A DNA stretch of 64,000 nt, from contig CAVTTD010000017.1 of NCBI GenBank assembly GCA_963737525.1, positions 515 through 64,514 of the forward strand, read 5' to 3'. Below are positions 6,399 to 49,346 of the stretch, piece by piece. A model generated the notes under the pieces. The model had not been told where the DNA came from and did not search any database. It saw only the letters and a program-made list of their open reading frames with translations. The position numbers and the translations under genes are program-made. How positions within the stretch are numbered: position 1 is the stretch's first letter; every line of letters starts with the position of its first letter. The stretch comes from an uncultured Actinomycetota bacterium (GTDB lineage: Bacteria; Actinomycetota; UBA4738; HRBIN12).

Positions 6399-6692
6399 TC
6401 AGTCGTCCGGCGAGTGCAGGGTCAGGTCGCTGTCGATGATCTCGACCTCTGCCCATCGCTCGACGAATCGCTCCACCGAGTGCATCACCTTCTTGAGGTG
6501 ATACCCCTCGGTCGCGACCGCGGCGACCCCGAGCTCCGCTCGCTGCCACTTGTCCAGATAGCCGGTCTCCGCGACGGCGACCTCGAACGTCGACCGGATA
6601 CCGCTCGAGAGCGCCTTCACCACGTGACGCTTCTCCTTCAGCGAGCCGCAAGCCGGGATCCGGAGATCGAGCCGAAGCGCGGCCATCAGCAT
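6399..6692 (-). CDS. DUF503 (YlxP-like) protein
   Basis: About 97 aa from an internal ATG: MLMAALRLDLRIPACGSLKEKRHVVKALSSGIRSTFEVAVAETGY... This is the standard infB-DUF503-rbfA arrangement. The start abuts the infB stop. Confidence 0.7.
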   Translation of the reverse strand: MLMAALRLDLRIPACGSLKEKRHVVKALSSGIRSTFEVAVAETGYLDKWQRAELGVAAVATEGYHLKKVMHSVERFVERWAEVEIIDSDLTLHSPDD

Positions 6693-8890
6693 CAGGAGAT
6701 CTGGCGCGCGAACTCCTCGACCTCGAAGGCCTCGATCACGTCGCCCTCCTTCACGTCCTGGAAGTTCTCGAGCCCGATCCCACACTCGAATCCTTCGCGA
6801 ACCTCGGCCACGTCGTCCTTGAACCGGCGGAGCGAGGCCACCCGGCCCTCGTACACGACGACACCGTCGCGGATCAGCCGGACCTGCGCGTTCCTCCGGA
6901 TCGTGCCCTTGGTGAGGTAGCAGCCCGCGATCACGCCGAGCCTCGGCACGCGGAACGTCTGACGGACCTCCGCCTCGCCGAGGATCGACTCGCGTTCCTC
7001 CGGCTTGAGCATCCCGGAGAGGGCCGCCTTCACGTCGTCGATCGCGTCGTAGATCACCCGGTACAGCCGGATGTCCACGCCTTCGCGTTCGGCGAGCTCG
7101 CGAGCGTTGGCGTTCGGTCGGACGTTGAAGCCGACCACGATCGCGTTCGCCGTCTTCGCGAGGTCGACGTCGTGCTCGGTGATCGCGCCGGCGCCGGAGT
7201 GAACGAGGTTCACGCGCACCTCGTCCTGCGGGAGCTTCAGGAACGCGTCTGTGAGGGCGCCGAGCGAACCCTGGACGTCCGCCTTGACGACCAGATTCAG
7301 CTCCGGGATCTCCGAGCGCTCCTGCCGGCGAAGCAGCTCTTGCAGCGACGCCGGCCGTTGGTTCACGACCTCGGCCGACCGAACGCGTGACTCACGCTCG
7401 GCCGCGATGTGCCGTGCCTCGCGCTCGTCCTCGACCTCGCGGAATTCGTCGCCAACGTTGGGAACCCCGTTCCAACCGAGCACCTGGGCCGGCTTCGCGG
7501 GACCGGCGACGTCGACGGGCTGTCCGTTCTCGTCGACCATCGCACGCACCTTGCAGTACGTGGTGCCGCAGACGAGGGCGTCGCCCACCTCGAGCCGCCC
7601 CTTCTGCACCAGTACGGTCGCCACGGGGCCCCGACCCTTGTCGAGGTGCGCCTCGAGAACGGTGCCGCGCGCATGGCCCGTAGGATCGCCCTTGAGCTCA
7701 GCGAGGTCGGCGACGATCAGCACCGTCTCCAGCAGTCCCTCCAGGTTCGCGTTCGTCTTCGCGGAGACATCGACGAACTCGGTGTCGCCGCCCCATTCCG
7801 ACGGGACGAGGCCGCGTTCCACCATCTGCGTCCGCACGCGGTTCGGATCGGCCTCTTCCTTGTCGATCTTGTTCACGGCGACGATCACCGGCACGCCCGC
7901 CGCCCTCGCGTGGTCGAGCGCCTCGACGGTCTGCGGCATCACGCCGTCGTCGGCGGCGACGACGAGGACGGCGATGTCGGTGATCTGTGCGCCTCGCGCA
8001 CGCATCGCGGTGAAGGCCTCGTGACCTGGCGTGTCGATGAACGTGATCTCACGACCGTTGACGTGGGCCTGATACGCGCCGATGTGCTGGGTGATCCCGC
8101 CGAACTCGCCGGAGACGACGTCGGTCACCCGGATCGCGTCGAGGAGCTTCGTCTTGCCGTGGTCGACGTGACCCATCACGGTCACGACGGGCGAGCGAGG
8201 AACGAGCTTGGACTCGTCGACATCCTCCTCGAGCTCCTCGGCCTGGATCTCGTCTTCGAGGCCGACGATCTCCACGTGATACCCGAGCTCCGATCCGAGG
8301 GTCTGGAGGGCCTCGTCGGAGAGCGAAGTCGTCGCCGTGACCATCTCGCCCGCCATGAACAGGATCTTCACGATGTCGGCCGGTGACCGATTGGTCTTCT
8401 CCGCGAACAGCTGCGGCGTGGATCCCCGAACCACCTGCAGCACGGGGCCCGTGGGGGCCGGGGCGGCCACGGGCGCGGGCGCGATCGGTGTCGGGATCGG
8501 TGACACGGAGGCGGCCGGGGGGGCCGGCGGGGCGGGGGTGGTGCGTGCCGCCGGCGCACCGGATGGTGCGGGAGCCACGGTCGCGACCGCCGGCGTCGAG
8601 GGCGCGGGAGCCGCACCTCCCGGGGCCTGCTCTTCCTCGACGTCGGGCGCCGGGGTCGCCGCCTTGGTCGTCTTCGGTTTGGGCTTCGCGCGTGGCTTCG
8701 GCGGCGGTTCCATGACCTGGCGAGGCTTGGCCGCCTTGGTCGCCTTGCCACCCGAGGCACGCAGGCGTGGCACGAGGTCTTCGGGCACGCTGGAGGAGGC
8801 GGACTTGCCGGTCACGCCCATCTTCTCGAGCGTCTCCAGCAACTCCTTGCTGGAGACGTCGAGCTCCTTCGCGAGCTCGTGGATCCTCAT
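6692..8890 (-). CDS. infB: translation initiation factor IF-2
   Basis: 732 aa. Pro/Ala-rich N-terminal linker, then G domain VVTVMGHVDHGKTKLLD...DTPGHEAF...NKIDK, then the C-terminal beta-barrels. Confidence 0.97.
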   Translation of the reverse strand: MRIHELAKELDVSSKELLETLEKMGVTGKSASSSVPEDLVPRLRASGGKATKAAKPRQVMEPPPKPRAKPKPKTTKAATPAPDVEEEQAPGGAAPAPSTPAVATVAPAPSGAPAARTTPAPPAPPAASVSPIPTPIAPAPVAAPAPTGPVLQVVRGSTPQLFAEKTNRSPADIVKILFMAGEMVTATTSLSDEALQTLGSELGYHVEIVGLEDEIQAEELEEDVDESKLVPRSPVVTVMGHVDHGKTKLLDAIRVTDVVSGEFGGITQHIGAYQAHVNGREITFIDTPGHEAFTAMRARGAQITDIAVLVVAADDGVMPQTVEALDHARAAGVPVIVAVNKIDKEEADPNRVRTQMVERGLVPSEWGGDTEFVDVSAKTNANLEGLLETVLIVADLAELKGDPTGHARGTVLEAHLDKGRGPVATVLVQKGRLEVGDALVCGTTYCKVRAMVDENGQPVDVAGPAKPAQVLGWNGVPNVGDEFREVEDEREARHIAAERESRVRSAEVVNQRPASLQELLRRQERSEIPELNLVVKADVQGSLGALTDAFLKLPQDEVRVNLVHSGAGAITEHDVDLAKTANAIVVGFNVRPNANARELAEREGVDIRLYRVIYDAIDDVKAALSGMLKPEERESILGEAEVRQTFRVPRLGVIAGCYLTKGTIRRNAQVRLIRDGVVVYEGRVASLRRFKDDVAEVREGFECGIGLENFQDVKEGDVIEAFEVEEFARQIS

Positions 8891-9162: not shown

Positions 9163-10419
9163 TCATTCCCCCGCCGGCGCCTCCGCTGGCGCGGCCTCGA
9201 CCTGCGTCTGGGGGACCGCGACCGGCTCGGCCAGCACGGGCTCCGCTTCCTCGGGCGTCGGCTCGGCGCCGGCGCCCGTAGCGACGTCTTCCTCCGTCGC
9301 CGCCTGAGGCTCCTCGGCCGCAACCACTTCAGCCGCCTCGTCGGGCGGCGGCGCAGAAGGCCTCGGCGCCGGCGAAGGCTCCGCCGCCTGGCTCTCGGAC
9401 TTGATGTCGATCCGCCATCCGGTCAGACGGGCCGCCAGTCGGGCGTTCTGCCCCTCCCTGCCGATCGCGAGCGAGAGCTGGTAGTCGGGGACGATCACGA
9501 GGGCGGTCTGCGTGTCGGGGTTGACCGTGACCTCCTTCACCTTCGCCGGCTGCAGCGCGTTCGCGACGAAGGTGGCCGACTCGTCCGACCACGGAACGAC
9601 GTCGATCTTCTCGCCACGGAGCTCGTTGACCACCATGCGCACGCGCGAACCCTTCGGTCCGACGCACGCGCCGACCGGATCGACGGCCGGCTCGTTCGAC
9701 GCGACCGCGATCTTCGACCGGTGTCCCGGCTCGCGGGCCACGGCCATGATCTCCACGATCCCCTCGTCGATCTCGGGCACTTCGAGCGCGAACAACGCCT
9801 TCAGCAGGCCCGGATGCGTCCGCGAGACGACGATCTGCGGACCCTTCGTCCCGCGACGAACCTCCGTGATGAATGCTTTGAGTCGCTCGCCATGGCGAAG
9901 CGGCTCCGACGGAACCTGCTCGCCCTGCGGAAGCAGTGCCTCCACCTTGCCGAGATCCAGCAACGTGTACCTGCGCTCCTGCTGCTGGACGATCCCGGTG
10001 ACCACGTCGCCCTCGCGTCCCGCGAACTCCTCGTAGGTCATCTCCCGTTCCGCATCTCGGAGCTTCTGGAAGATCACCTGCTTCGCCGTCTGGGCGCCGA
10101 TCCGTCCCTTGAAGTCATCCGTGACCTCGACCTCGGCCTCCGAGATGACCTTCATCTCGACCCCGGGCTCCTCGCTGCCCTCGGCCGGCGGGGTATCGAT
10201 CTCTTCGAGCTCCTGCTGCCACATACGAAGGTCGCCCGTCTCCGGGTCGATCACCGCGCGGAACCCGACGAACTCGTCGTTGCCGTCAGGGTGTTCCTGC
10301 TTCCAATGCGCCTTGTAAGCCGAGGCCATCGCCTCTTCCAAGCCGCCAAGGATCGTCTCGAAGGCGATCCCCTTCTCCCGCTCGAGCTCGCGCAGTGCGG
10401 CGATCATCTCGGCGTTCAT
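9163..10419 (-). CDS. nusA: transcription termination/antitermination factor NusA
   Basis: 418 aa with S1 and KH domains ([59 protein letters not shown]) and an acidic C-terminal tail. Confidence 0.95.
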
Positions 10420-23687: not shown

Positions 23688-25263
23688 CTAGAACGCGATG
23701 AGGCGAAGCAGGAGAAGAGCCGCGGGCGCCACGAACAAGAGCGAATCGATCCTGTCGAGAACACCCCCGTGGCCGGGCAGGACGCTCCCCATGTCCTTCA
23801 CGCCGACGTCTCGCTTGATCAACGATTCGGCCAGATCGCCGAAGGTGGCCGCCAGCGAGACGACGATGCCGAGCAACACGGCGTTCAGCCGCCCGTCCAC
23901 GAAGATGCCCGGACCCGCGTCGACGAACGCGGTGACGAAGGCGGACGAAAGGATGATCGTCCCGAGCGAGGCCACGATGAGGCCTTCGATCGACTTCTTC
24001 GGGCTCGTGGCCGGGGCGAGCGGCCGCTGGATGAACGATCCCCCCCAGACGGAGCCGGTCAGGAACGCCAACGTGTCGAACGCGAACGTGAGACCGATCA
24101 CGGCGACCACGACGGAGGTCTCGAACGTGGTGAGGATGATCAGCAGCGAGCCCGCGAGCCCGGGGATCCAGAGCAACCCGAGCAACGTGAGTCCGATGTT
24201 CCCGGCGGTGTCCTTCCGGTGGGCCGCCGGAACCGTCATGTACCAGAGGAAGGTCGCCAGCACGCCGAGCGTCAGCATCGACAGGAGGCCGGCCTCGCCG
24301 TGGTAGTACGCGCCGGCGAGCATCAACGCGCCACTCACGAGTCCGACCGCCGTCGCGGGTTGGCGATGATGCTTCACCATCACCCCGATACAACTCACCC
24401 TGGGCCACGAGCGCGACGATGGAAGCGACGAGCGCGAAGACACCGTCGCCGATCAACAGGGCGACCAGCGCGACCCCCGCCAGCACGACGCCGGTCAGGA
24501 ACGCGGCGGGAACGTCGCGCTCGGTTCCCCGCCGGTCGAGGTCGGCTCCGACCTCGACGGCCGCCGGCTCCTGCCAGCTCGGACCGCCGAGTCCTTCGGC
24601 GCCGACGACGATCGTGCGGGCCGGTTCCTCCTCGGCCATCGCGGCGAAGACGTCCTCGTCCGCGTCGCCCGGTGGGTACGGCTCCGCGCCGAGCTCGTCC
24701 ATCAGGTCCGCGGCGTTCTCCTCGTCGATCTGGACGACGCGTGCAGCCGGCGCCCCGGCCCCTTCATCGCCAGCCGGTTCGGCGAAATGGGCCGCGGCTT
24801 CCTCCAACTCCTCGGCGGACGGCCGCTCATCCTCGTCCTCTTCCGCAGGCCACTCATCGGTCGCGGCCGGCCGCGCGAAGAGGTCTCCCTGGTCGTCGTC
24901 CGGCTGCTCCATCTCGGCGGCACGGACGACGGGCTCCTCGTCGGCATGGGCGTCGTCGCTGTCTTCGGCCGAGGCTCCGAGCGCCTGGTCGACGGGCTCG
25001 AGCGAGGCCGTGTCGTACCAGTCGGTCTCGTCTTCCTCGTCGTCGTCCTCGAAAGCGTCCGCGCCTCCGGGCGCTTCCGCGCCGGCTGGGGGGACCGAGA
25101 CCACCGCTTCGGGCTCGCTCCGCACGGACACGTGCTCCTCGCCCGGCGGTCCGCCCGCGGGCGCTGCGTCCTCCGACTCGTCCCACTCGACGTCCTTGAT
25201 CGGAGCGAAGAACTTGTCGAGATCCTCGAACAGATCGTCGCCCTCGTGCTCGTCGTCGGGCAC
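23688..25263 (-). CDS. cdsA: phosphatidate cytidylyltransferase with ~230-aa acidic N-terminal extension; one apparent frameshift
   Basis: GTG at 25263 overlaps the frr stop. D/E-rich low-complexity region, then the first TM AFLTGVVLAGVALVALLIGDGVFALV...AQGELYR. Frame switch near a C4 run at about 24381-24386. Remainder includes the signature GDLAESLIKRDVGVKDMGSVLPGHGGVLDRIDSLLF. Confidence 0.75.
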
Positions 25264-31260: not shown

Positions 31261-31331
31261 GAGAACGACGCTAGAAGGCCTCGGCGGCGCGCGCCGTGAA
31301 ACGCGTCACATCGACGCGGAGGAACCGTCGG

Positions 31332-43599: not shown

Positions 43600-44271
43600 C
43601 TAGTGCTCGAGGTCAGGCCGGTTCCGATGCGTCTTCTCGAGTGCGGCGTCGGCGCGCCACCGCTCGATCGCGCCATGATCGCCAGAGAGCAAGACCTCGG
43701 GCACGGCCATGCCACGGTACTCGGGCGGCCGGGTGTAGTGGGGATGGTCCAAGGACCAGGGTTCCGCGAAGGAATCCCGCTCGTGGGACTCCTCCTTGCC
43801 GATGACGCCGGGAACGAGCCGGGTGACGGCCTCGATGACCACCAGCGCAGGGATCTCGCCGCCCGCGACCACGTAGTCCCCGATCGACACCTCTTCGGCC
43901 GGGAGCCCTTCGACGACCCGCTCGTCCACACCTTCGTACCGGCCGCAGAGGAGTGTCAGGTGTTCCTCCTCGGCGAGTTCTCGCACGAAGGCCTGGTCCA
44001 GAGGCCGTCCTGCCGGGGACAGGAGCAGCACACGGCCGCGGTCTGGATCCAGCGACTCGACCGCGGCGAAGAAAGGCTCGGGCTTCATCACCATCCCCGG
44101 ACCGCCGCCGTACGCCGTGTCGTCGACCATCCGGTGGCGATCGTCGGACCATTCCCGGAGGTCGTGCACCCGGACGTCGAGCAACCCTTCCGCGATCGCC
44201 TTCCCCAGGAGGCTCTCCCGCACAGGCCCTCCGAAGATCCCCGGGAAGATCGTGAACACGTCGATCCGCAT
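43600..44271 (-). CDS. trmD: tRNA (guanine37-N1)-methyltransferase
   Basis: 223 aa; MRIDVFTIFPGIF...DVRVHDLREW...VDDTAYGGGPGMVMKPEP...LLCGRYEGVDERV is classic TrmD. Confidence 0.93.
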   Translation of the reverse strand: MRIDVFTIFPGIFGGPVRESLLGKAIAEGLLDVRVHDLREWSDDRHRMVDDTAYGGGPGMVMKPEPFFAAVESLDPDRGRVLLLSPAGRPLDQAFVRELAEEEHLTLLCGRYEGVDERVVEGLPAEEVSIGDYVVAGGEIPALVVIEAVTRLVPGVIGKEESHERDSFAEPWSLDHPHYTRPPEYRGMAVPEVLLSGDHGAIERWRADAALEKTHRNRPDLEH

Positions 44272-44352
44272 CGAGCGAGGCTAGCAACGTTGCGTCCGCG
44301 ACCGCGTCGAGGCACGATGCGCCCGACCGGCCGCGGGCCGGACGGAGGAACG

Positions 44353-46632
44353 ATGACGCCGATCGTCCTGGTGGTGCTCATGTTCGTCGGGATCGTGATC
44401 GCCGTGGACACCGTGCGTCGGCGGAAGATCCGCATCGCGCGAACGATCGATCTCCAAGGGTGGGTCGCCGCGCGCCTTGCGGAACCGGGGCCGCCGGTGC
44501 TCACGGAGGCGCTCGCCTCGGCGTTGACGCGCGAGCCGCCGGTCCACGTGGATCTCTACGTCAAGCTGACCGAGTCCCTGGAGATCGCCAACCTGCGCCC
44601 TCGGCTGCGGGACGGGTGCGAGGTGAAGATCTTCCGGCTCCGCTGGGGGAACGACTTCGCGATGATCGCTCGCGACGACCGTGAGCTCCACTATCGGCTC
44701 GAGGTCTGGGAGGCGGAGCTGCTCCCGAAGCTGGACGGGACGAGGACCGTCGGTGATCTGGTCGTCGAGCGGATGGAAGCCGGTGGTGGGCTCGACGCCG
44801 AGCCGGTGACCGATCTCGTCGTGGCCTTGTACGGAGGCGGTTTCCTCGATCCCGCTCCCATCGCGACCAACGAGCTGATCGTGGACCGGCTCGATCCCTC
44901 GTCCCCGGGCCGAAAGAAGCTGACGCGGTTCGGCAAGACACTCTCGATCGAGTGGAAAGGCGCGGACCGTCTGGTCCGCTTCTGCTATCGGAACCTCCTG
45001 CGGCCGTTCTTCTGGTGGCCCGTCGCGCTCGTGTCCGGCCTCGTCGCGATCGCTGGGCTGGCAGCCTTCGTCGATGTCTATGCCTCCGGACGGTTCTCGA
45101 TCGGGGGGGAATCCGCCCCGACCGAGGCGGCGATCTTGCTCGCCCTCGCGTTCTTCCTGACGTTCATGCACGAGCTCGGGCACTCGGTCGTCATCTCCCG
45201 TTACAACCGGAAGGTGAAGGGCGCCGGCTTCATGATCTATTTCGGCTCGCCTGCCTTCTTCGTCGAGGCGACGGACAGCCTCATGCTCGAACGAAGACAG
45301 CGCATCCTCCAAGCTTCCGCCGGGCCGTTCACGGAGCTGATCATCGCCGGAGTGGCTTCGCTCGTGATCTTCGCTTCCCCAGACGGTCCGCTTGCGGACC
45401 TGCTCTACAAATTCGCGCTCCTCAACTACATCGTGATCTTCCTGAATCTCGTCCCCTTGCTGGAACTCGACGGCTACTTCATCCTCTCCGACCTGATCCA
45501 GGTCCCCGACCTCCGACCCCGCTCCCTTCAGTTCATCCAGCACGACCTGTGGCACAAGATCTCGTCGCGCGAACGCCTGACGCCCCAGGAGTGGGGTCTC
45601 GGGGGATACGGGTTCGCCGGGATCGCGTTCACGATCTTCTCCTTCTGGACGGGATTGTTCTTCTGGAAGGTGATCTTCTTGAATCTGGCCGTCGGTCTTT
45701 GGAACGGCGGCATCGGCTCGAAAGTCTTGTTGGTGCTGCTGGGCGCGTTCCTCGCTGGACCGATCATCCGCGGCCTGCTCACACTGACTCTCAGCCTCGT
45801 GAGGCGCATCAGGGGACTCGTTCGAGCGATCCGGTTCCGCCTCGAGACCACCTGGCGGGTCGAGGCGGCGGAGCTGATCGACGCGCTCCCGGCGTTCGAC
45901 GATCTTCCCGAGGATGTCCTCTCGGACCTCGCGGGGCGTGTGCGACTGCGGATCCTTCGCGCCGGCGAGCCGGCCTTCCGCCAAGGGGACCAGCCGGACG
46001 CCTTCTACATCGTGCGGCGGGGCACCGTGCGCATCGAGGACGAGGATCCGGAGACGAGCGCCACACGCATCATCCGGACGATGGGTCGGGGCGAATCGTT
46101 CGGCGAGATGGGGCTCCTCGGCGGGCGACGGCGCCAGGCGACCGTCCGGGCAGGGGACGACGTGGAGCTCTTCGAGGTGGACAAGGGCACCTTCGACCGG
46201 CTGCTCGCCGATGACATGCGCGCGCCTGAGTTCGGTCACACGATGCAGGCGCTCGCCGAGCTCCGGGAGCTCTCGGTCTTCCACGGGCTGGACTCCGAGC
46301 AGCTGAACGTCATCCTTGAACACGGGGAGTGGATCACTGCCGTCCACGGCGACGAACTCATCACACAAGGTGAGCCGGGAGACCGGTTCTACGTGATCGA
46401 GTCGGGACGGGCCGAGATCATCCGGGACGGGACCGGCCTCGACTCCGTGAGCAAGGGGATGTACTTCGGCGAGGTTGCCCTGCTTCGCGACGTCCCGAGG
46501 ACGGCCACGGTGGTCGCCTCCACCCCGATGCGTCTGTTCGCCCTCGATCGTGAAGGCTTCGAGCTCGTCGTCGCCGATGCCTTCCGGCGCGGTACGCTCC
46601 GCCCCGCCGCCGACCGCATCTGGCAGCACTGA
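44353..46632 (+). CDS. M50-family (site-2-protease-like) metalloprotease fused to two C-terminal cyclic-nucleotide-binding domains
   Basis: ATG at 44353 after GGAGGA. 759 aa.
- N-terminal TM MTPIVLVVLMFVGIVIAV.
- An about 200-aa domain of unknown type.
- M50 core with HExxH (FFLTFMHELGHSVV) and the S2P second motif (LNLVPLLELDGYFIL) amid TM helices.
- Two CAP_ED domains: FGEMGLLGGRRRQATVRA and FGEVALLRDVPRTATVVA. Confidence 0.75.
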   Translation: MTPIVLVVLMFVGIVIAVDTVRRRKIRIARTIDLQGWVAARLAEPGPPVLTEALASALTREPPVHVDLYVKLTESLEIANLRPRLRDGCEVKIFRLRWGNDFAMIARDDRELHYRLEVWEAELLPKLDGTRTVGDLVVERMEAGGGLDAEPVTDLVVALYGGGFLDPAPIATNELIVDRLDPSSPGRKKLTRFGKTLSIEWKGADRLVRFCYRNLLRPFFWWPVALVSGLVAIAGLAAFVDVYASGRFSIGGESAPTEAAILLALAFFLTFMHELGHSVVISRYNRKVKGAGFMIYFGSPAFFVEATDSLMLERRQRILQASAGPFTELIIAGVASLVIFASPDGPLADLLYKFALLNYIVIFLNLVPLLELDGYFILSDLIQVPDLRPRSLQFIQHDLWHKISSRERLTPQEWGLGGYGFAGIAFTIFSFWTGLFFWKVIFLNLAVGLWNGGIGSKVLLVLLGAFLAGPIIRGLLTLTLSLVRRIRGLVRAIRFRLETTWRVEAAELIDALPAFDDLPEDVLSDLAGRVRLRILRAGEPAFRQGDQPDAFYIVRRGTVRIEDEDPETSATRIIRTMGRGESFGEMGLLGGRRRQATVRAGDDVELFEVDKGTFDRLLADDMRAPEFGHTMQALAELRELSVFHGLDSEQLNVILEHGEWITAVHGDELITQGEPGDRFYVIESGRAEIIRDGTGLDSVSKGMYFGEVALLRDVPRTATVVASTPMRLFALDREGFELVVADAFRRGTLRPAADRIWQH

Positions 46633-46643
46633 AAGGGGAACGC

Positions 46644-46856
46644 GTGGATTGCTGGCACTGCCGCCGGACCGCCGTGGGGACCTGCCGATTCTGCGGTCGC
46701 GGCGTCTGCGAGGACCACGCGGAGACCCAGCCGTTCGTGCTCGAGCTGTTCCGGAGCAAGGACGTCACCCGCGCGCTCGTCGTGGAGGACGCGCTCTGGT
46801 GCGCGGCCTGCACACCTCGCCCGGACCCGGTGGACCTGCCGGAGCTCGATGCCTGA
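46644..46856 (+). CDS. small four-Cys zinc-ribbon protein
   Basis: GTG start 11 nt after the protease stop, with AAGGGG SD. 70 aa: (M)DCWHCRRTAVGTCRFCGRGVCEDHAE...LWCAACTPRPDPVDLPELDA, carrying CxxC-x7-CxxC-x4-C ... CxxC. Confidence 0.5.
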   Translation: MDCWHCRRTAVGTCRFCGRGVCEDHAETQPFVLELFRSKDVTRALVVEDALWCAACTPRPDPVDLPELDA

Positions 46857-46870
46857 CGTCCCGTTCCAGG

Positions 46871-46970
46871 TGTGACCTACGTCACATCCCGCGCCTGTTC
46901 CGCGTCACATCTCGCGGTCGTTGGGCGTCACAACGCTCCTGGTGACGAATGTCACCGTCTTCGCGTGACA
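46871..46970. promoter_or_regulatory. cluster of CRP/FNR-type boxes
   Basis: Perfect TGTGA-N6-TCACA (TGTGACCTACGTCACA, 46871-46886). GTCACA half-sites at 46904 and 46927. GGTGACGAATGTCACC (46941-46956). GTGACA at 46965, giving TGTCAC-N9-GTGACA. The cluster lies 14 bp after the zinc-ribbon ORF and upstream of the small basic ORF and the CRP-family gene. Confidence 0.55.
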
Positions 46971-47065
46971 CGCACCACCGACCGGCCGTGCCCGAGGCGA
47001 CATGATTCGGGTGTCGAAGAACAGGGCCCGACTCGGGCCCACGGACTCAGGAGGAGGACCCTGGG

Positions 47066-47200
47066 ATGGCGGACAAGAAGATCACTCCGAAGGCGGCAAG
47101 CTCCAAGGACAAGGCGTCGGGCGACCGCGCCGCGGCTCGCGTCTCGCTGAGGACCACCAAGCGGACGACCAAGCGGACCACCAAGCGGACCACCAAGTAG
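47066..47200 (+). CDS. 44-aa highly basic peptide with C-terminal (TTKR)x4 tandem repeat
   Basis: ATG at 47066 with strong SD AGGAGGAGGA (47049-47058). Translation: MADKKITPKAASSKDKASGDRAAARVSLRTTKRTTKRTTKRTTK. A hairpin GGGCCCG-ACT-CGGGCCC (47024-47040) precedes it and a terminator follows. Too short for the ORF track. Confidence 0.45.
   Translation: MADKKITPKAASSKDKASGDRAAARVSLRTTKRTTKRTTKRTTK
47153..47197 (+). repeat. 12-nt tandem repeat (ACCACCAAGCGG x3.75) encoding the TTKR repeats
   Basis: Units: accaccaagcgg / acgaccaagcgg / accaccaagcgg / accaccaag. Confidence 0.8.
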
Positions 47201-47231
47201 CAGGTCCGATCTTCGGACTGAACGTGATCGA

Positions 47232-47266
47232 GGACGGGCGCCGCAGGCGCCCGTCCTTCGTTTTGG
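47232..47266 (+). terminator. Rho-independent terminator after the small basic ORF
   Basis: GGACGGGCGCC-GCAG-GCGCCCGTCC (perfect 10-11-bp stem) followed by TTCGTTTTGG. Confidence 0.6.
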
Positions 47267-47301
47267 CTTGCACGAGGCAGCCGGGCTAGGCTCCTCTCGT
47301 C

Positions 47302-48003
47302 ATGCGAAGGGCCGACGACCTCCAGGTAGGCAAGGTGATGGCGGGCGCCCCGTTCCTCGAGCAGGTCCCGCACGAGGCCCTGGATCGGTTCGCCACGCAG
47401 GGCGCCGTCCACCGCTTCCGCCGGGGGACCTACCTCTGTCACCAGGGCGACCCGGACGGAGACGTCTTCTTCCTGGTATCCGGCCGGGTCGAGATCAGCT
47501 CCGAGACGGCCAACGGGAACAGGGTGTTGCACGCGACCTTGGATACCCCCGGGTTCGTCGGCGAGCTCTCGGCCCTCGGGAAGATGCCGAGGACCGCGAG
47601 CGTCCTCACCCTCGACGACTCGGACGTGTGGTCGACGGGGCCAGAGTCCTTCCTCGACTTCGTGACGGCCGAACCAGCCGCGTCTCGCGGCTTCCTCCAG
47701 GCGCTGGCCCGCCAGGTTCGGGAGCATCAGTCCTTCACCGACGACCTCCTGCACCTCGACCTGAAGGGCCGGCTCGCGAAGCGGCTCCTCCAGCTCGTGA
47801 CGCCCACCCTCGACGATCTTCCGAAGGACGGGGTACTCGTCCCGGCCGTCACGCACGCCGACCTTGCGAGCCTGTGCGGCGGCAGCCGGGAGAACGTGAC
47901 CCGCATCCTCACCGAGTGGCAGCGGCGCGGGCTCGTGGAGCGCGATGGGCATCGCTACGTCCTGAAGAAGGTGTCCGGCCTGGCGAAGATCGCCGACCTC
48001 TAG
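47302..48003 (+). CDS. CRP/FNR-family transcriptional regulator (CRP-like, no Fe-S cysteines)
   Basis: cNMP-binding domain (GDPDGDVFFLVSGRVEI...FVGELSALG...RTASVLT). C-terminal HTH with TGTGA-reading residues ADLASLCGGSRENVTRILTEW. Alternative start ATG 47338 (MAGAPFLEQ...) has a better SD. The stop shares CTAG with the rimM stop. Confidence 0.85.
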   Translation: MRRADDLQVGKVMAGAPFLEQVPHEALDRFATQGAVHRFRRGTYLCHQGDPDGDVFFLVSGRVEISSETANGNRVLHATLDTPGFVGELSALGKMPRTASVLTLDDSDVWSTGPESFLDFVTAEPAASRGFLQALARQVREHQSFTDDLLHLDLKGRLAKRLLQLVTPTLDDLPKDGVLVPAVTHADLASLCGGSRENVTRILTEWQRRGLVERDGHRYVLKKVSGLAKIADL

Positions 48004-48533
48004 TCCTGAGTCTCCTCTGGGGACTCTTCGGGCGCGGTGAGTCCCGGCACGTCTTTCACCACGATCGTTCGAGCGACGACGTCGACGTCGACGAGGAGGT
48101 CGGCGAGCGCCGGGACCAATGTTTCGTTCCCTTCCTCGTCCACGGCGACCCAGAGGTCGTTGGCTGGGTTCGGGATGACCTCCTTCACGATGCCGAGGAC
48201 GCGGCCCGACGCGGTCCGCACCTCGCACCCCTCGAGCTGGTAGGCCCACCACTCTTCGTCCGCCAGATCGGGCAGCCAGGACTCCGGGACGACGAGAACG
48301 GCACCACGGAGATCCTCGGCGGCGCTGCGATCCACGATCCCCGCGAACTTCACGATCAGTCGGCGGCCGTGGCGTCTGCTCGCTTCGATCGTGAGCGCGG
48401 CACCGTCTTCGCGGAGGACGGTGCCACCCGGCGCCCAGCGATCCGGATTGTCGGAGCGGTTCTGTACGGAGACATCCCCGCGAAGGCCGTGGACCCCTGT
48501 CACCACGCCGACGACGACGGTCGGCTCGTCCAC
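48000..48533 (-). CDS. rimM: 16S rRNA processing protein RimM
   Basis: GTG start 1 nt after the KH-protein stop: (M)DEPTVVVGVVTGVHGLRGDVSVQNRSDNPDRW... plus PRC barrel ...VLGIVKEVIPNPANDLWVAV. 177 aa. Confidence 0.88.
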   Translation of the reverse strand: MDEPTVVVGVVTGVHGLRGDVSVQNRSDNPDRWAPGGTVLREDGAALTIEASRRHGRRLIVKFAGIVDRSAAEDLRGAVLVVPESWLPDLADEEWWAYQLEGCEVRTASGRVLGIVKEVIPNPANDLWVAVDEEGNETLVPALADLLVDVDVVARTIVVKDVPGLTAPEESPEETQD

Positions 48534-48534
48534 C

Positions 48535-48765
48535 TCAGTCTTCGATGTCCACCATGGCGCCATGACCCTGGCGCTGCGCGGCCGCGCGGACGACGGTGCG
48601 GATCGCCTTGGCCGTTCGGCCGCCCCGGCCGATGACCTTGCCCATGTCATCCGGGGCCACCCGAACGCGATAGCGAGGACCACGCTCGTCGAAGGTTTCC
48701 TCGATGGAGACGGAATCGGGCTCGTCGACCAACTCCTGCACGAGGAACTCGACGAGATCCTTCAC
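48535..48765 (-). CDS. KH-domain RNA-binding protein
   Basis: 76 aa; [56 protein letters not shown]. Conserved rpsP-KH-rimM arrangement; ATGA overlap with rpsP. Confidence 0.8.
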
Positions 48766-49346
48766 GCGTCCTCCGTGTCGGACGTCTCGGCCGCAGGGAG
48801 TTCCTCGGCCTCGACCGGTGCCGTTGCCTCGGCCGGTGCCGCTTCCGTCGGCGACTCCTCCGCGGGTACGTCAGCGACGGCCTCGACCGCTTCGGCGGCA
48901 CCCGCCTCCGCGACCTCTGGCTCCGCGACCTCTGGCTCGGCGACCTCTGGCTCGGCCTCCACTGCGGGGGCTTCTTGAACGGTCGGCTCGGGTTCGGAGG
49001 CCGCGGCCTCAGCTTTCTGCTTGGCCTTCTTCGACAGCTTCGGCTTGGACGTCCGCTCTTTCGCGGGACCGGCGTCCGCCGACGGACGCTCCTTCACGAA
49101 CTCCTCCCAGATACCCACCTTCTTCATCAGGTTGCGGACCTGGTCCGAGGGTTGTGCCCCCACACGCAGCCAGTGCAGGGCCCGGTTCTGGTCGATCTCG
49201 ATCACGCTCGGATCGTCGAGCGGGTGGTACTTGCCGATGTTCTCGATGAAACGGCCGTCGCGGGGACTCCGCTGGTCCGCCACCACGACGCGGAAGAACG
49301 GGCGCTTGTTCGAGCCCATCCTCCGGAGCCGGATCCTGGTCGTCAT
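48762..49346 (-). CDS. rpsP: 30S ribosomal protein S16 with Ala/Glu/Pro-rich C-terminal extension
   Basis: [43 protein letters not shown]... then a repetitive (AEPEV)n tail. Confidence 0.93.

Follow-up and report, generated by a model that had tools for sequence, protein, structure and literature searches.

A small basic protein gene with predicted CRP control next to an M50 protease with cyclic nucleotide-binding domains in uncultured Actinomycetota

The window analyzed here is the 64,000-nucleotide stretch of contig CAVTTD010000017.1 (assembly GCA_963737525.1) from an uncultured Actinomycetota bacterium, and all coordinates below refer to it. It contains a module of about 3.7 kb encoding, in this order, a membrane protease, a zinc-finger protein of 70 amino acids (aa), a basic mini-protein and a CRP regulator. 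The mini-protein gene, the subject of this work, lies at 47066..47200 on the plus strand, with its ATG at 47066 and a TAG stop codon at 47198-47200, and encodes the 44-aa product MADKKITPKAASSKDKASGDRAAARVSLRTTKRTTKRTTKRTTK. The product is strongly basic (15 Lys plus Arg residues, 3 Asp plus Glu, isoelectric point 11.7) and has two parts, an invariant module (residues 1-28) and a tail (residues 29-44) made of RTTK repeated four times. The tail is encoded by a tandem repeat at 47151..47197 (+), in which Tandem Repeats Finder reports a 12-nt unit in 3.9 copies with 94% matches. The initial annotation of this DNA had described the open reading frame (ORF), a Shine-Dalgarno sequence 7 nt before the ATG, a 7-bp hairpin in the 5' untranslated region (UTR) and the 12-nt repeat, and all four lie where it placed them. 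Its description of the tail as (TTKR)x4 needs amending: the repeat is real, but the product reads as RTTK four times, equivalent to three TTKR units plus TTK, and the unit is lineage-specific and the least conserved part of the protein.

The ORF is a genuine protein gene and represents an unannotated small-protein family. About 60 homologues of the mini-protein are known in all, with frame and start codon kept, and their source is uncultured Actinomycetota. A word-indexed search of 5.8 billion proteins returned 37 homologues of about 47 aa, all metagenomic and unnamed, and HMMER, run exhaustively on 1.84 billion representatives of clusters built at 50% identity, returned 26 matches, all of them small proteins. 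Pattern scanning of 185,579 species genomes located 29 loci, every one in a metagenome-assembled genome (MAG) of an uncultured actinomycetote, including one of the Microthrixaceae. The 26 representatives share MA[DE]KK[IV]xPKA[AP], a spacer and AA[AT]RV[ST]KK, followed by a poly-Lys/Arg repeat, and in the alignment of homologues the N-terminal half is invariant while the basic tail varies. Among 31 distinct DNA sequences covering the first 28 codons, the variable columns number 8, 8 and 22 at codon positions 1, 2 and 3. Residues T7, P8, A10, A11, R21, A22-24 and V26 are invariant, yet each is coded by three to four synonymous codons. This pattern of synonymous substitution shows that purifying selection acts on the amino acid sequence of the mini-protein. 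GC content at the three codon positions of the ORF is 0.43, 0.64 and 0.93 (68.8% GC for the window), a pattern typical of genuine reading frames in genomes rich in GC. Conservation of the frame in homologous loci, which the initial annotation had put forward as a test of the ORF, was thus examined and the frame is kept. In one related locus (L032:5001-5150) the peptide homologue is frame-shifted past residue 13, and the protease and CRP matches are fragmentary too; the shift probably reflects an erroneous indel in the assembly of that MAG and not true decay.

The mini-protein belongs to no family that we could find, in agreement with the first description of the ORF. It has no match in Pfam at E<=0.1 or in NCBIfam at E<=1, and its profile has none among PDB sequences at E<=10. 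No significant profile match was obtained to known ribosomal, nucleoid or other small-protein families. An Rfam scan of positions 46000-48500 at E<=1 gave nothing relevant, only a chance-level ZTP hit (E = 0.9) off the gene. Literature searches, including one for 'KKITPKA', gave no match for the mini-protein.

The family is defined by its N-terminal 28 residues, and the tail turns over. In close relatives the tail unit is RQTK, RETK, ATHK, KSTR or irregular, and protein lengths of 43, 47 and 51 aa indicate a copy number varying by single units; the variation in repeat number that had been anticipated is therefore found. Wider relatives use units of three (KKM), four (KHVK), five (KKVAQ, seven copies, and KKLSH) or six residues (RSVKKT), so a strict four-residue structural period of the tail was dropped as an explanation. 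At the DNA level the tails of relatives contain repeats of 12 or 15 nt that differ in unit and copy number. Across the family the net charge lies between +9 and +22. Since unit, period and copy number vary while the charge stays, selection acts on the charge and length of the tail, with turnover of the unit by slippage. The C-terminal residue is Lys in the window peptide, and I, V, L, N, H, K or rarely T in its relatives. One locus (L038) carries tandem paralogous peptide genes at 6681-6833 and 7059-7217, whose tails differ (TARR/VARR against SRKx).

The region upstream of the mini-protein gene contains a cluster of CRP-type sites. The first is a perfect palindrome at 46871..46886 (TGTGACCTACGTCACA) that is kept in related loci. 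Two CGTCACA half-sites follow at 46903-46909 and 46926-46932, 23 nt apart and in conserved alignment columns. A second palindrome is located at 46941..46956 (GGTGACGAATGTCACC), of which GTGACGAACGTCAC is near-invariant in 32 loci, and a degenerate site lies at 46965..46978 (GTGACACGCACCAC), with conserved GTGAC-N6-CAC(C) columns and fixed spacing. The palindrome GTGAC-N4-GTCAC occurs twice in the 64 kb against 0.08 expected, and both copies are upstream of this ORF, so its position downstream of CRP boxes, as originally proposed, is borne out. The site blocks are kept in 32 closely related loci, and GTGA-N6-TCAC precedes the peptide gene in distant clades as well. In the locus with two peptide genes, the full GTGA-N6-TCAC is present only before the second copy, and the first has half-sites. 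Scanning the upstream region for a sigma-70 consensus promoter found none, and the promoter assignment thus rests on conservation. A putative weak -10 element, CATGAT, is at 47001..47006 (+); its position is conserved and relatives have CAnGnT. The center of the degenerate CRP site is 29.5 nt upstream of this element, which would place it at the class II position (-41.5) if the putative -10 is correct. The spacing rule for class II CRP promoters was established in E. coli. The excess of sites and their conservation together suggest that the mini-protein promoter is regulated by CRP. Three further GTGA-N6-TCAC matches occur in the window, at 9527-9540, 24088-24101 and 31296-31309, giving a total of five against 1.07 expected. 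The 31296 match, which overlaps a CGTCACA half-site, is placed where two minus-strand ORFs meet and may be a further CRP target.

The transcript predicted from this region begins with structured signals. The 5'-UTR hairpin at 47024..47040 (+), GGGCCCG-ACU-CGGGCCC, has seven G-C pairs and a 3-nt loop and ends 8 nt before the Shine-Dalgarno sequence. Its folding is unexceptional for GC-rich sequence (z = -0.86), and the support for it comes from conservation with compensatory changes instead of folding strength: relatives have a hairpin at the same position with other stems (GGGCCC, GGGTCC/GGACCC, GGGCTC/GAGCCC, GGATCC). The Shine-Dalgarno sequence, AGGAGGAGGA, is at 47049..47058 (+), and GGAGGAGGA within it is invariant in 30 aligned loci. 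In the minimum-free-energy fold, CUCAGG (47046-47051) pairs with CCUGGG (47060-47065) and most of the Shine-Dalgarno sequence is looped out.

Two hairpins follow the stop codon. The first, at 47204..47218 (+), is small (GUCCGA-UCU-UCGGAC), takes the form GAUC-UUCG-GAUC in close relatives and is not universal. The second is an intrinsic-terminator-like element at 47230..47264 (+), with a stem-loop at 47230-47258 followed by UUCGUUUU. Its stem had been described as a perfect 10-bp helix; the terminator holds, but the stem is longer, with 13 pairs by scan and 11 of them contiguous and perfect. Its folding z-score is -4.17, and none of 200 shuffled sequences folds as well, although its U tract is short and not continuous. 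After the peptide gene, every locus has a strong G+C hairpin in which base changes are compensatory. For the 5' UTR and the terminator, indels in the MAFFT alignments made RNAalifold under-call the helices, and folds of single sequences were more informative. All related loci, in every clade, have the ORF, Shine-Dalgarno sequence, 5' hairpin and terminator, and in the locus with two peptide genes each has its own Shine-Dalgarno sequence and terminator. Having its own promoter region and terminator, and followed by a gene with a separate promoter (see below), the mini-protein gene is taken to be monocistronic. These features and the codon-level purifying selection confirm the earlier view of a stand-alone gene unlike the spurious ORFs elsewhere.

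The gene downstream, at 47302..48003 (+), encodes a CRP/FNR-family regulator of 233 aa with Pfam cNMP_binding and HTH_Crp_2 domains. The closest solved structures are Rv3676 of M. tuberculosis and GlxR of C. glutamicum (E about 1e-20), both of which bind TGTGA-N6-TCACA. The regulator is 88-97% identical within its clade. A TAGGCT -10 element is at 47287..47292 (+), 9 nt before the ATG, and the block CTAGGCTCC is conserved 6-9 nt before the CRP start codon in related loci. Close relatives of the window sequence also have a -35-like hexamer, TTGGCT, lying 18 nt upstream. Since this actinobacterial-type -10 is so near the ATG, the CRP mRNA appears to be leaderless.

Upstream of the CRP sites, the zinc-finger gene at 46644..46856 (+) starts 11 nt past the protease stop codon. 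Its 70-aa product has the pattern CxxC-x7-CxxC-x4-CxxH ... CxxC and an acidic tail, RPDPVDLPELDA, and it just passes as the archaeal Pfam family DUF2180 (23.0 bits, cutoff 22.2), on which a literature search found nothing. The C-terminus, RPDPVDLPELD, includes DLPELD, which recalls acidic leader motifs.

The first gene of the module, at 44353..46632 (+), encodes a 759-aa protease; its ATG at 44353 is preceded by GGAGGA. The protein consists of an N-terminal transmembrane helix, a domain with the fold of a recognition element (RRE) for RiPPs (ribosomally synthesized peptides that carry post-translational modifications; about residues 85-165), an M50 core, and two domains that bind cyclic nucleotide monophosphates (cNMPs). 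The M50 motifs are HELGH at residue 273 and NLVPLLELDG, and the FGE...R[TQ]AT cassettes of both cNMP-binding domains are intact. Conservation among 94 homologues is 90% or higher for HExxH, NxxPxxxLDG and the two cNMP phosphate-binding cassettes. Pfam assigns two cNMP_binding domains and Peptidase_M50 (PF02163, 30.7 bits, cutoff 27.2). The best NCBIfam match by far is daptide_HExxH (NF041824; E=8.7e-46), aligned to positions 15-350 of the 379 in the profile; the next protease family is the YydH/LiaK RiPP protease (2.9e-13), and there is a weak match to TIGR03896, a bacteriocin-transport-associated cNMP-binding protein.

Structure prediction identifies the N-terminal domain as an RRE. Its sequence matches to RREs are weak but concordant (PqqD 0.007, ScmD 0.015, PaaA_N 0.04, PaaA in the PDB 0.5). 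An AlphaFold2 model of this region from 21 close homologues was unusable (predicted local distance difference test, pLDDT, 44.5), and a rerun with 94 diverse homologues gave a domain with pLDDT 89.9 and the topology beta-beta-beta-alpha-alpha-alpha. In a Foldseek search of the PDB with this model, seven of the eight top matches are TbiB1, lasso B1 or PqqD chains (probability 0.87-1.00), and the leading RRE matches have probabilities of 0.97-1.00 and TM-scores of 0.58-0.66 on the target. They include TbiB1 with its leader peptide (probability 1.00, TM-score 0.64), lasso B1 with leader (1.00) and PqqD (0.99), and the RRE-containing CteB and SuiB appear lower in the list. The known role of RREs is to bind the leader of a peptide. 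Because the transmembrane helix ends in RRRK before this domain, the RRE is predicted to be cytoplasmic, like the cNMP domains. By residue count it is net acidic. Literature searches found no report of a fusion of RRE, site-2 protease (S2P) and cNMP domains, nothing on daptides together with a metalloprotease, and nothing on S2P with cNMP and M50.

The module is conserved as a unit. Starting from the peptide, 35 loci were identified, and each has the protease, zinc-finger and CRP genes on the same strand; the flanks differ in three distant loci among them. Seven divergent proteases (42-60% identical) were sampled without reference to the peptide, and in six of the seven loci a family peptide lies between the zinc-finger and CRP genes. 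Those six loci occur in four settings: rplS/trmD, trmD/rimM, beside glnA, and beside moaA-like genes. In most loci the module is on the opposite strand between trmD and rimM. In the window (43600-49346) it likewise interrupts, on the opposite strand, an otherwise canonical ffh-rpsP-KH-rimM-trmD-rplS cluster; other clades have it between rplS and trmD or far from such genes. The ribosomal-gene synteny is absent in L033-L036 and L042. Synteny gives only a weak case for a functional link of the mini-protein to ribosome genes, as several clades have the module at other places. The neighbors in all loci are the zinc-finger protein, CRP, trmD, rimM and similar genes, with no oxidative decarboxylase, aminotransferase, methyltransferase or ABC transporter, and across the 42 loci there is no modification enzyme or transporter in or beside the module.

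Two other proteins were noticed in these neighborhoods. A conserved ORF of 56-69 aa, ML.G[DE][IM]A..[RQ]I.D.[IL]R..E..R..., is present in four related loci, all on the minus strand (L036:3659-3829, L038:3635-3805, L042:2699-2869, L037:8312-8521). Its C-terminus is hydrophobic in L036, L038 and L042, and in three distant clades it is divergent and directly upstream of the protease gene. A motif search for this ORF found none in the window. The rpsP (S16) homologue at 48762-49346, on the minus strand, encodes 194 aa with an acidic Ala/Glu/Pro-rich C-terminal extension containing (PEVAE)x3.

Our favored reading, which we hold tentatively and at a little less than even confidence, is that the mini-protein is induced by CRP, is bound by the RRE through its invariant N-terminus, and is processed by the cAMP-gated protease. 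RREs bind leaders and the module encodes only two small products, so the mini-protein is the favored ligand and substrate; its size, invariant N-terminus and hypervariable C-terminus, occasional duplication, and positive charge relative to the acidic RRE all point the same way. It shows the generic trait of RiPP precursors, a conserved leader and variable core, with residues 1-28 near-invariant and a tail varying in sequence, period and length. A protease substrate was one of three roles suggested initially, and it gains specific support from the RRE and from the likeness of the adjacent M50 protein to RiPP leader peptidases.

As judged from the sequence signals, cAMP-CRP would bind the cluster of TGTGA-N6-TCACA-type sites and activate the weak mini-protein promoter with class II geometry, and the 5' stem-loop, very strong Shine-Dalgarno sequence and own terminator would give high, insulated expression of the mini-protein. 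By analogy to RiPP leaders, the RRE of the protease may then capture the invariant N-terminal segment in the cytoplasm. The cAMP-gated M50 site may cleave the mini-protein, parting the leader-like half from the polycationic tail, and cleavage would release or destroy an effector that binds a polyanion such as nucleic acid or the ribosome. cAMP would thus control both the synthesis and the processing of the mini-protein. A broader interpretation, possible but held with less confidence, is that the leader-recognition machinery of RiPPs has been repurposed, such that a cAMP-gated, RRE-guided protease matures or destroys a CRP-induced mini-protein that targets nucleic acids or ribosomes within the cell. 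This would be a core-genome circuit with a zinc-finger partner in uncultured soil Actinomycetota.

Several observations weigh against the favored reading. The link between the RRE and the mini-protein is drawn by analogy and from genomic context, and the zinc-finger protein is more tightly coupled to the protease and more conserved, being 69-100% identical across loci (76-100% without the most distant, L035) where the protease is 42-60% identical. The protease may have the zinc-finger protein as its true partner or substrate, and this protein is a serious alternative ligand of the RRE. In one locus, L040, nuo genes come after the protease and zinc-finger genes and no peptide or CRP gene lies within 3 kb, which shows that protease and zinc finger are separable from peptide and CRP. 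The mini-protein contains no hydrophobic segment, and classical site-2 protease substrates differ in this respect. The daptide_HExxH score of the protease (157 bits) is below the 300-bit family cutoff, and the Foldseek E-values are modest (6.5e-3).

Much of this would fit a CRP-induced basic protein that is not processed at all, with its N-terminus docking on a partner and its tail binding polyanions, while the protease acts elsewhere, for example on the zinc-finger protein. We regard this as quite possible, although on balance we doubt it. The CRP sites are specifically at the mini-protein gene, and the tail, with its net charge of +9 to +22 in the family, keeps its charge and not its sequence or period. 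The locus with protease and zinc finger but no adjacent peptide, and the zinc-finger start only 11 nt past the protease stop, are also expected from such a division of labor, and most clades have the module within the rpsP-rimM-trmD-rplS region. That synteny is missing in the five loci named above, however, and the mini-protein resembles no ribosomal or nucleoid family. An unprocessed protein also leaves unexplained why a protease resembling an RRE-bearing leader peptidase is its constant neighbor (41 of 42 loci) and why its conservation is leader/core-like.

Export is a further possibility that would use the same parts. Here the mini-protein would be a RiPP or bacteriocin-like precursor whose leader is removed by the RRE-S2P protease and whose cationic core is secreted. 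The neighboring protease is of the RRE-fused M50 type found in daptide clusters, the N-terminus is conserved and the C-terminus variable, one locus has two peptide copies, and the protease weakly matches TIGR03896. Nevertheless we consider export improbable, since none of the 42 loci has a modification enzyme or transporter in or beside the module. The module also occupies a vertically inherited core-genome position, the would-be core is without Cys and hydrophobic residues, and the leader motif and invariant C-terminal Thr of daptides are absent.

Since a short ORF and terminator precede the CRP gene by about 100 nt on its own strand, translation of the ORF and the hairpin after it could instead set read-through into that gene, as in an attenuator. 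This is very improbable and was rejected, as the CRP gene has its own promoter with a conserved TAGGCT -10, 6-9 nt before the ATG. Purifying selection at the amino acid level over 28 residues is strong, no alternative anti-terminator pairing is seen, and the two peptide genes of L038 have a terminator each, one of them also a full GTGA-N6-TCAC. That the frame is a chance ORF over a small RNA or repeat DNA, as its shortness, low-complexity repeat and place between two hairpins might suggest, is effectively refuted by the synonymous-substitution pattern, a frame and start codon kept in some 60 sequences, the GC of 0.93 at the third codon position and the lack of an Rfam match.

The mini-protein itself has no family, structure or literature record; RRE-guided leader peptidases and regulated intramembrane proteolysis are already known. 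It founds a small-protein family that automated pipelines call 'hypothetical' or miss, and it is among the clearest candidates for an output of the CRP regulator in a lineage without cultured members. Its repeat tail illustrates how, in nature, charge and length can be under selection while the unit itself turns over freely. If the favored reading is true, RRE domains, so far a hallmark of natural products, would also serve regulated proteolysis in signaling, and cyclic nucleotides would be able to gate site-2 proteases. Control by cAMP of both synthesis and processing of one effector would then constitute a feed-forward design.

The daptide system is the nearest known parallel. Its leader peptidase, MpaP, has an RRE fused N-terminally to a site-2 protease and removes the leader, and daptide precursors have the conserved leader motif ELExMEAP plus a C-terminal Thr that is invariant (10.1101/2023.03.08.531785). 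The window protease has the same order of predicted RRE and site-2 protease. As with the daptide precursor MpaA, the peptides are short, with a conserved N-terminal recognition region (a candidate one in the mini-protein) and a variable C-terminus, and sometimes occur in several copies per locus. Unlike MpaP, the window protease adds two C-terminal cNMP-binding domains, and its module has none of the MpaB/C/D/M modification enzymes and no ABC transporter. The window peptide and all its homologues lack ELExMEAP and have KK[IV]xPKA and AA[AT]RV[ST] instead, and there is no invariant C-terminal Thr in the family. The variable part of the window peptide is polycationic, not hydrophobic or helical, and the module belongs to the core genome, where a CRP regulator and a zinc-finger protein accompany it.

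The modeled domain has the three-strand, three-helix winged-helix fold of lasso B1 RREs, which work with a B2 protease, and of PqqD-type RREs (PDB 5v1u, 6jx3, 5sxy). Those RREs capture a leader peptide and deliver it to an enzyme that cleaves or modifies it. Sequence identity of the window domain to them is 13-17%, and unlike them it is fused to a metalloprotease and putative cAMP sensors; peptide binding by it is proposed by analogy.

In B. subtilis, the M50 site-2 protease SpoIVFB carries a cytoplasmic CBS domain that senses nucleotides, and the protease removes the N-terminal pro-sequence of pro-sigma-K. Like it, the window protein combines an M50 intramembrane metalloprotease with a cytoplasmic small-molecule sensor in what appears to be a dedicated regulatory circuit, and the candidate substrate is likewise not an integral membrane protein. 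The sensor of the window protease is a tandem cNMP-binding domain in place of CBS, and a predicted RRE is present. Its candidate substrate is a 44-aa basic peptide and not a sigma factor, and there are no inhibitors of the BofA/SpoIVFA type.

Small Lys/Arg-rich binders of nucleic acid include the actinobacterial ribosomal proteins bS22 and bL37 and the Lys-rich repeat tails of HupB and histone-H1-like proteins. The mini-protein is similar to these in size, extreme basicity, low-complexity repeat tail and, in many clades, proximity to ribosomal genes. It shares no sequence similarity with them (Pfam, NCBIfam, PDB) and its N-terminal module is without a counterpart, and it differs from them in the predicted dedicated CRP control of its gene and in having a protease as its neighbor.

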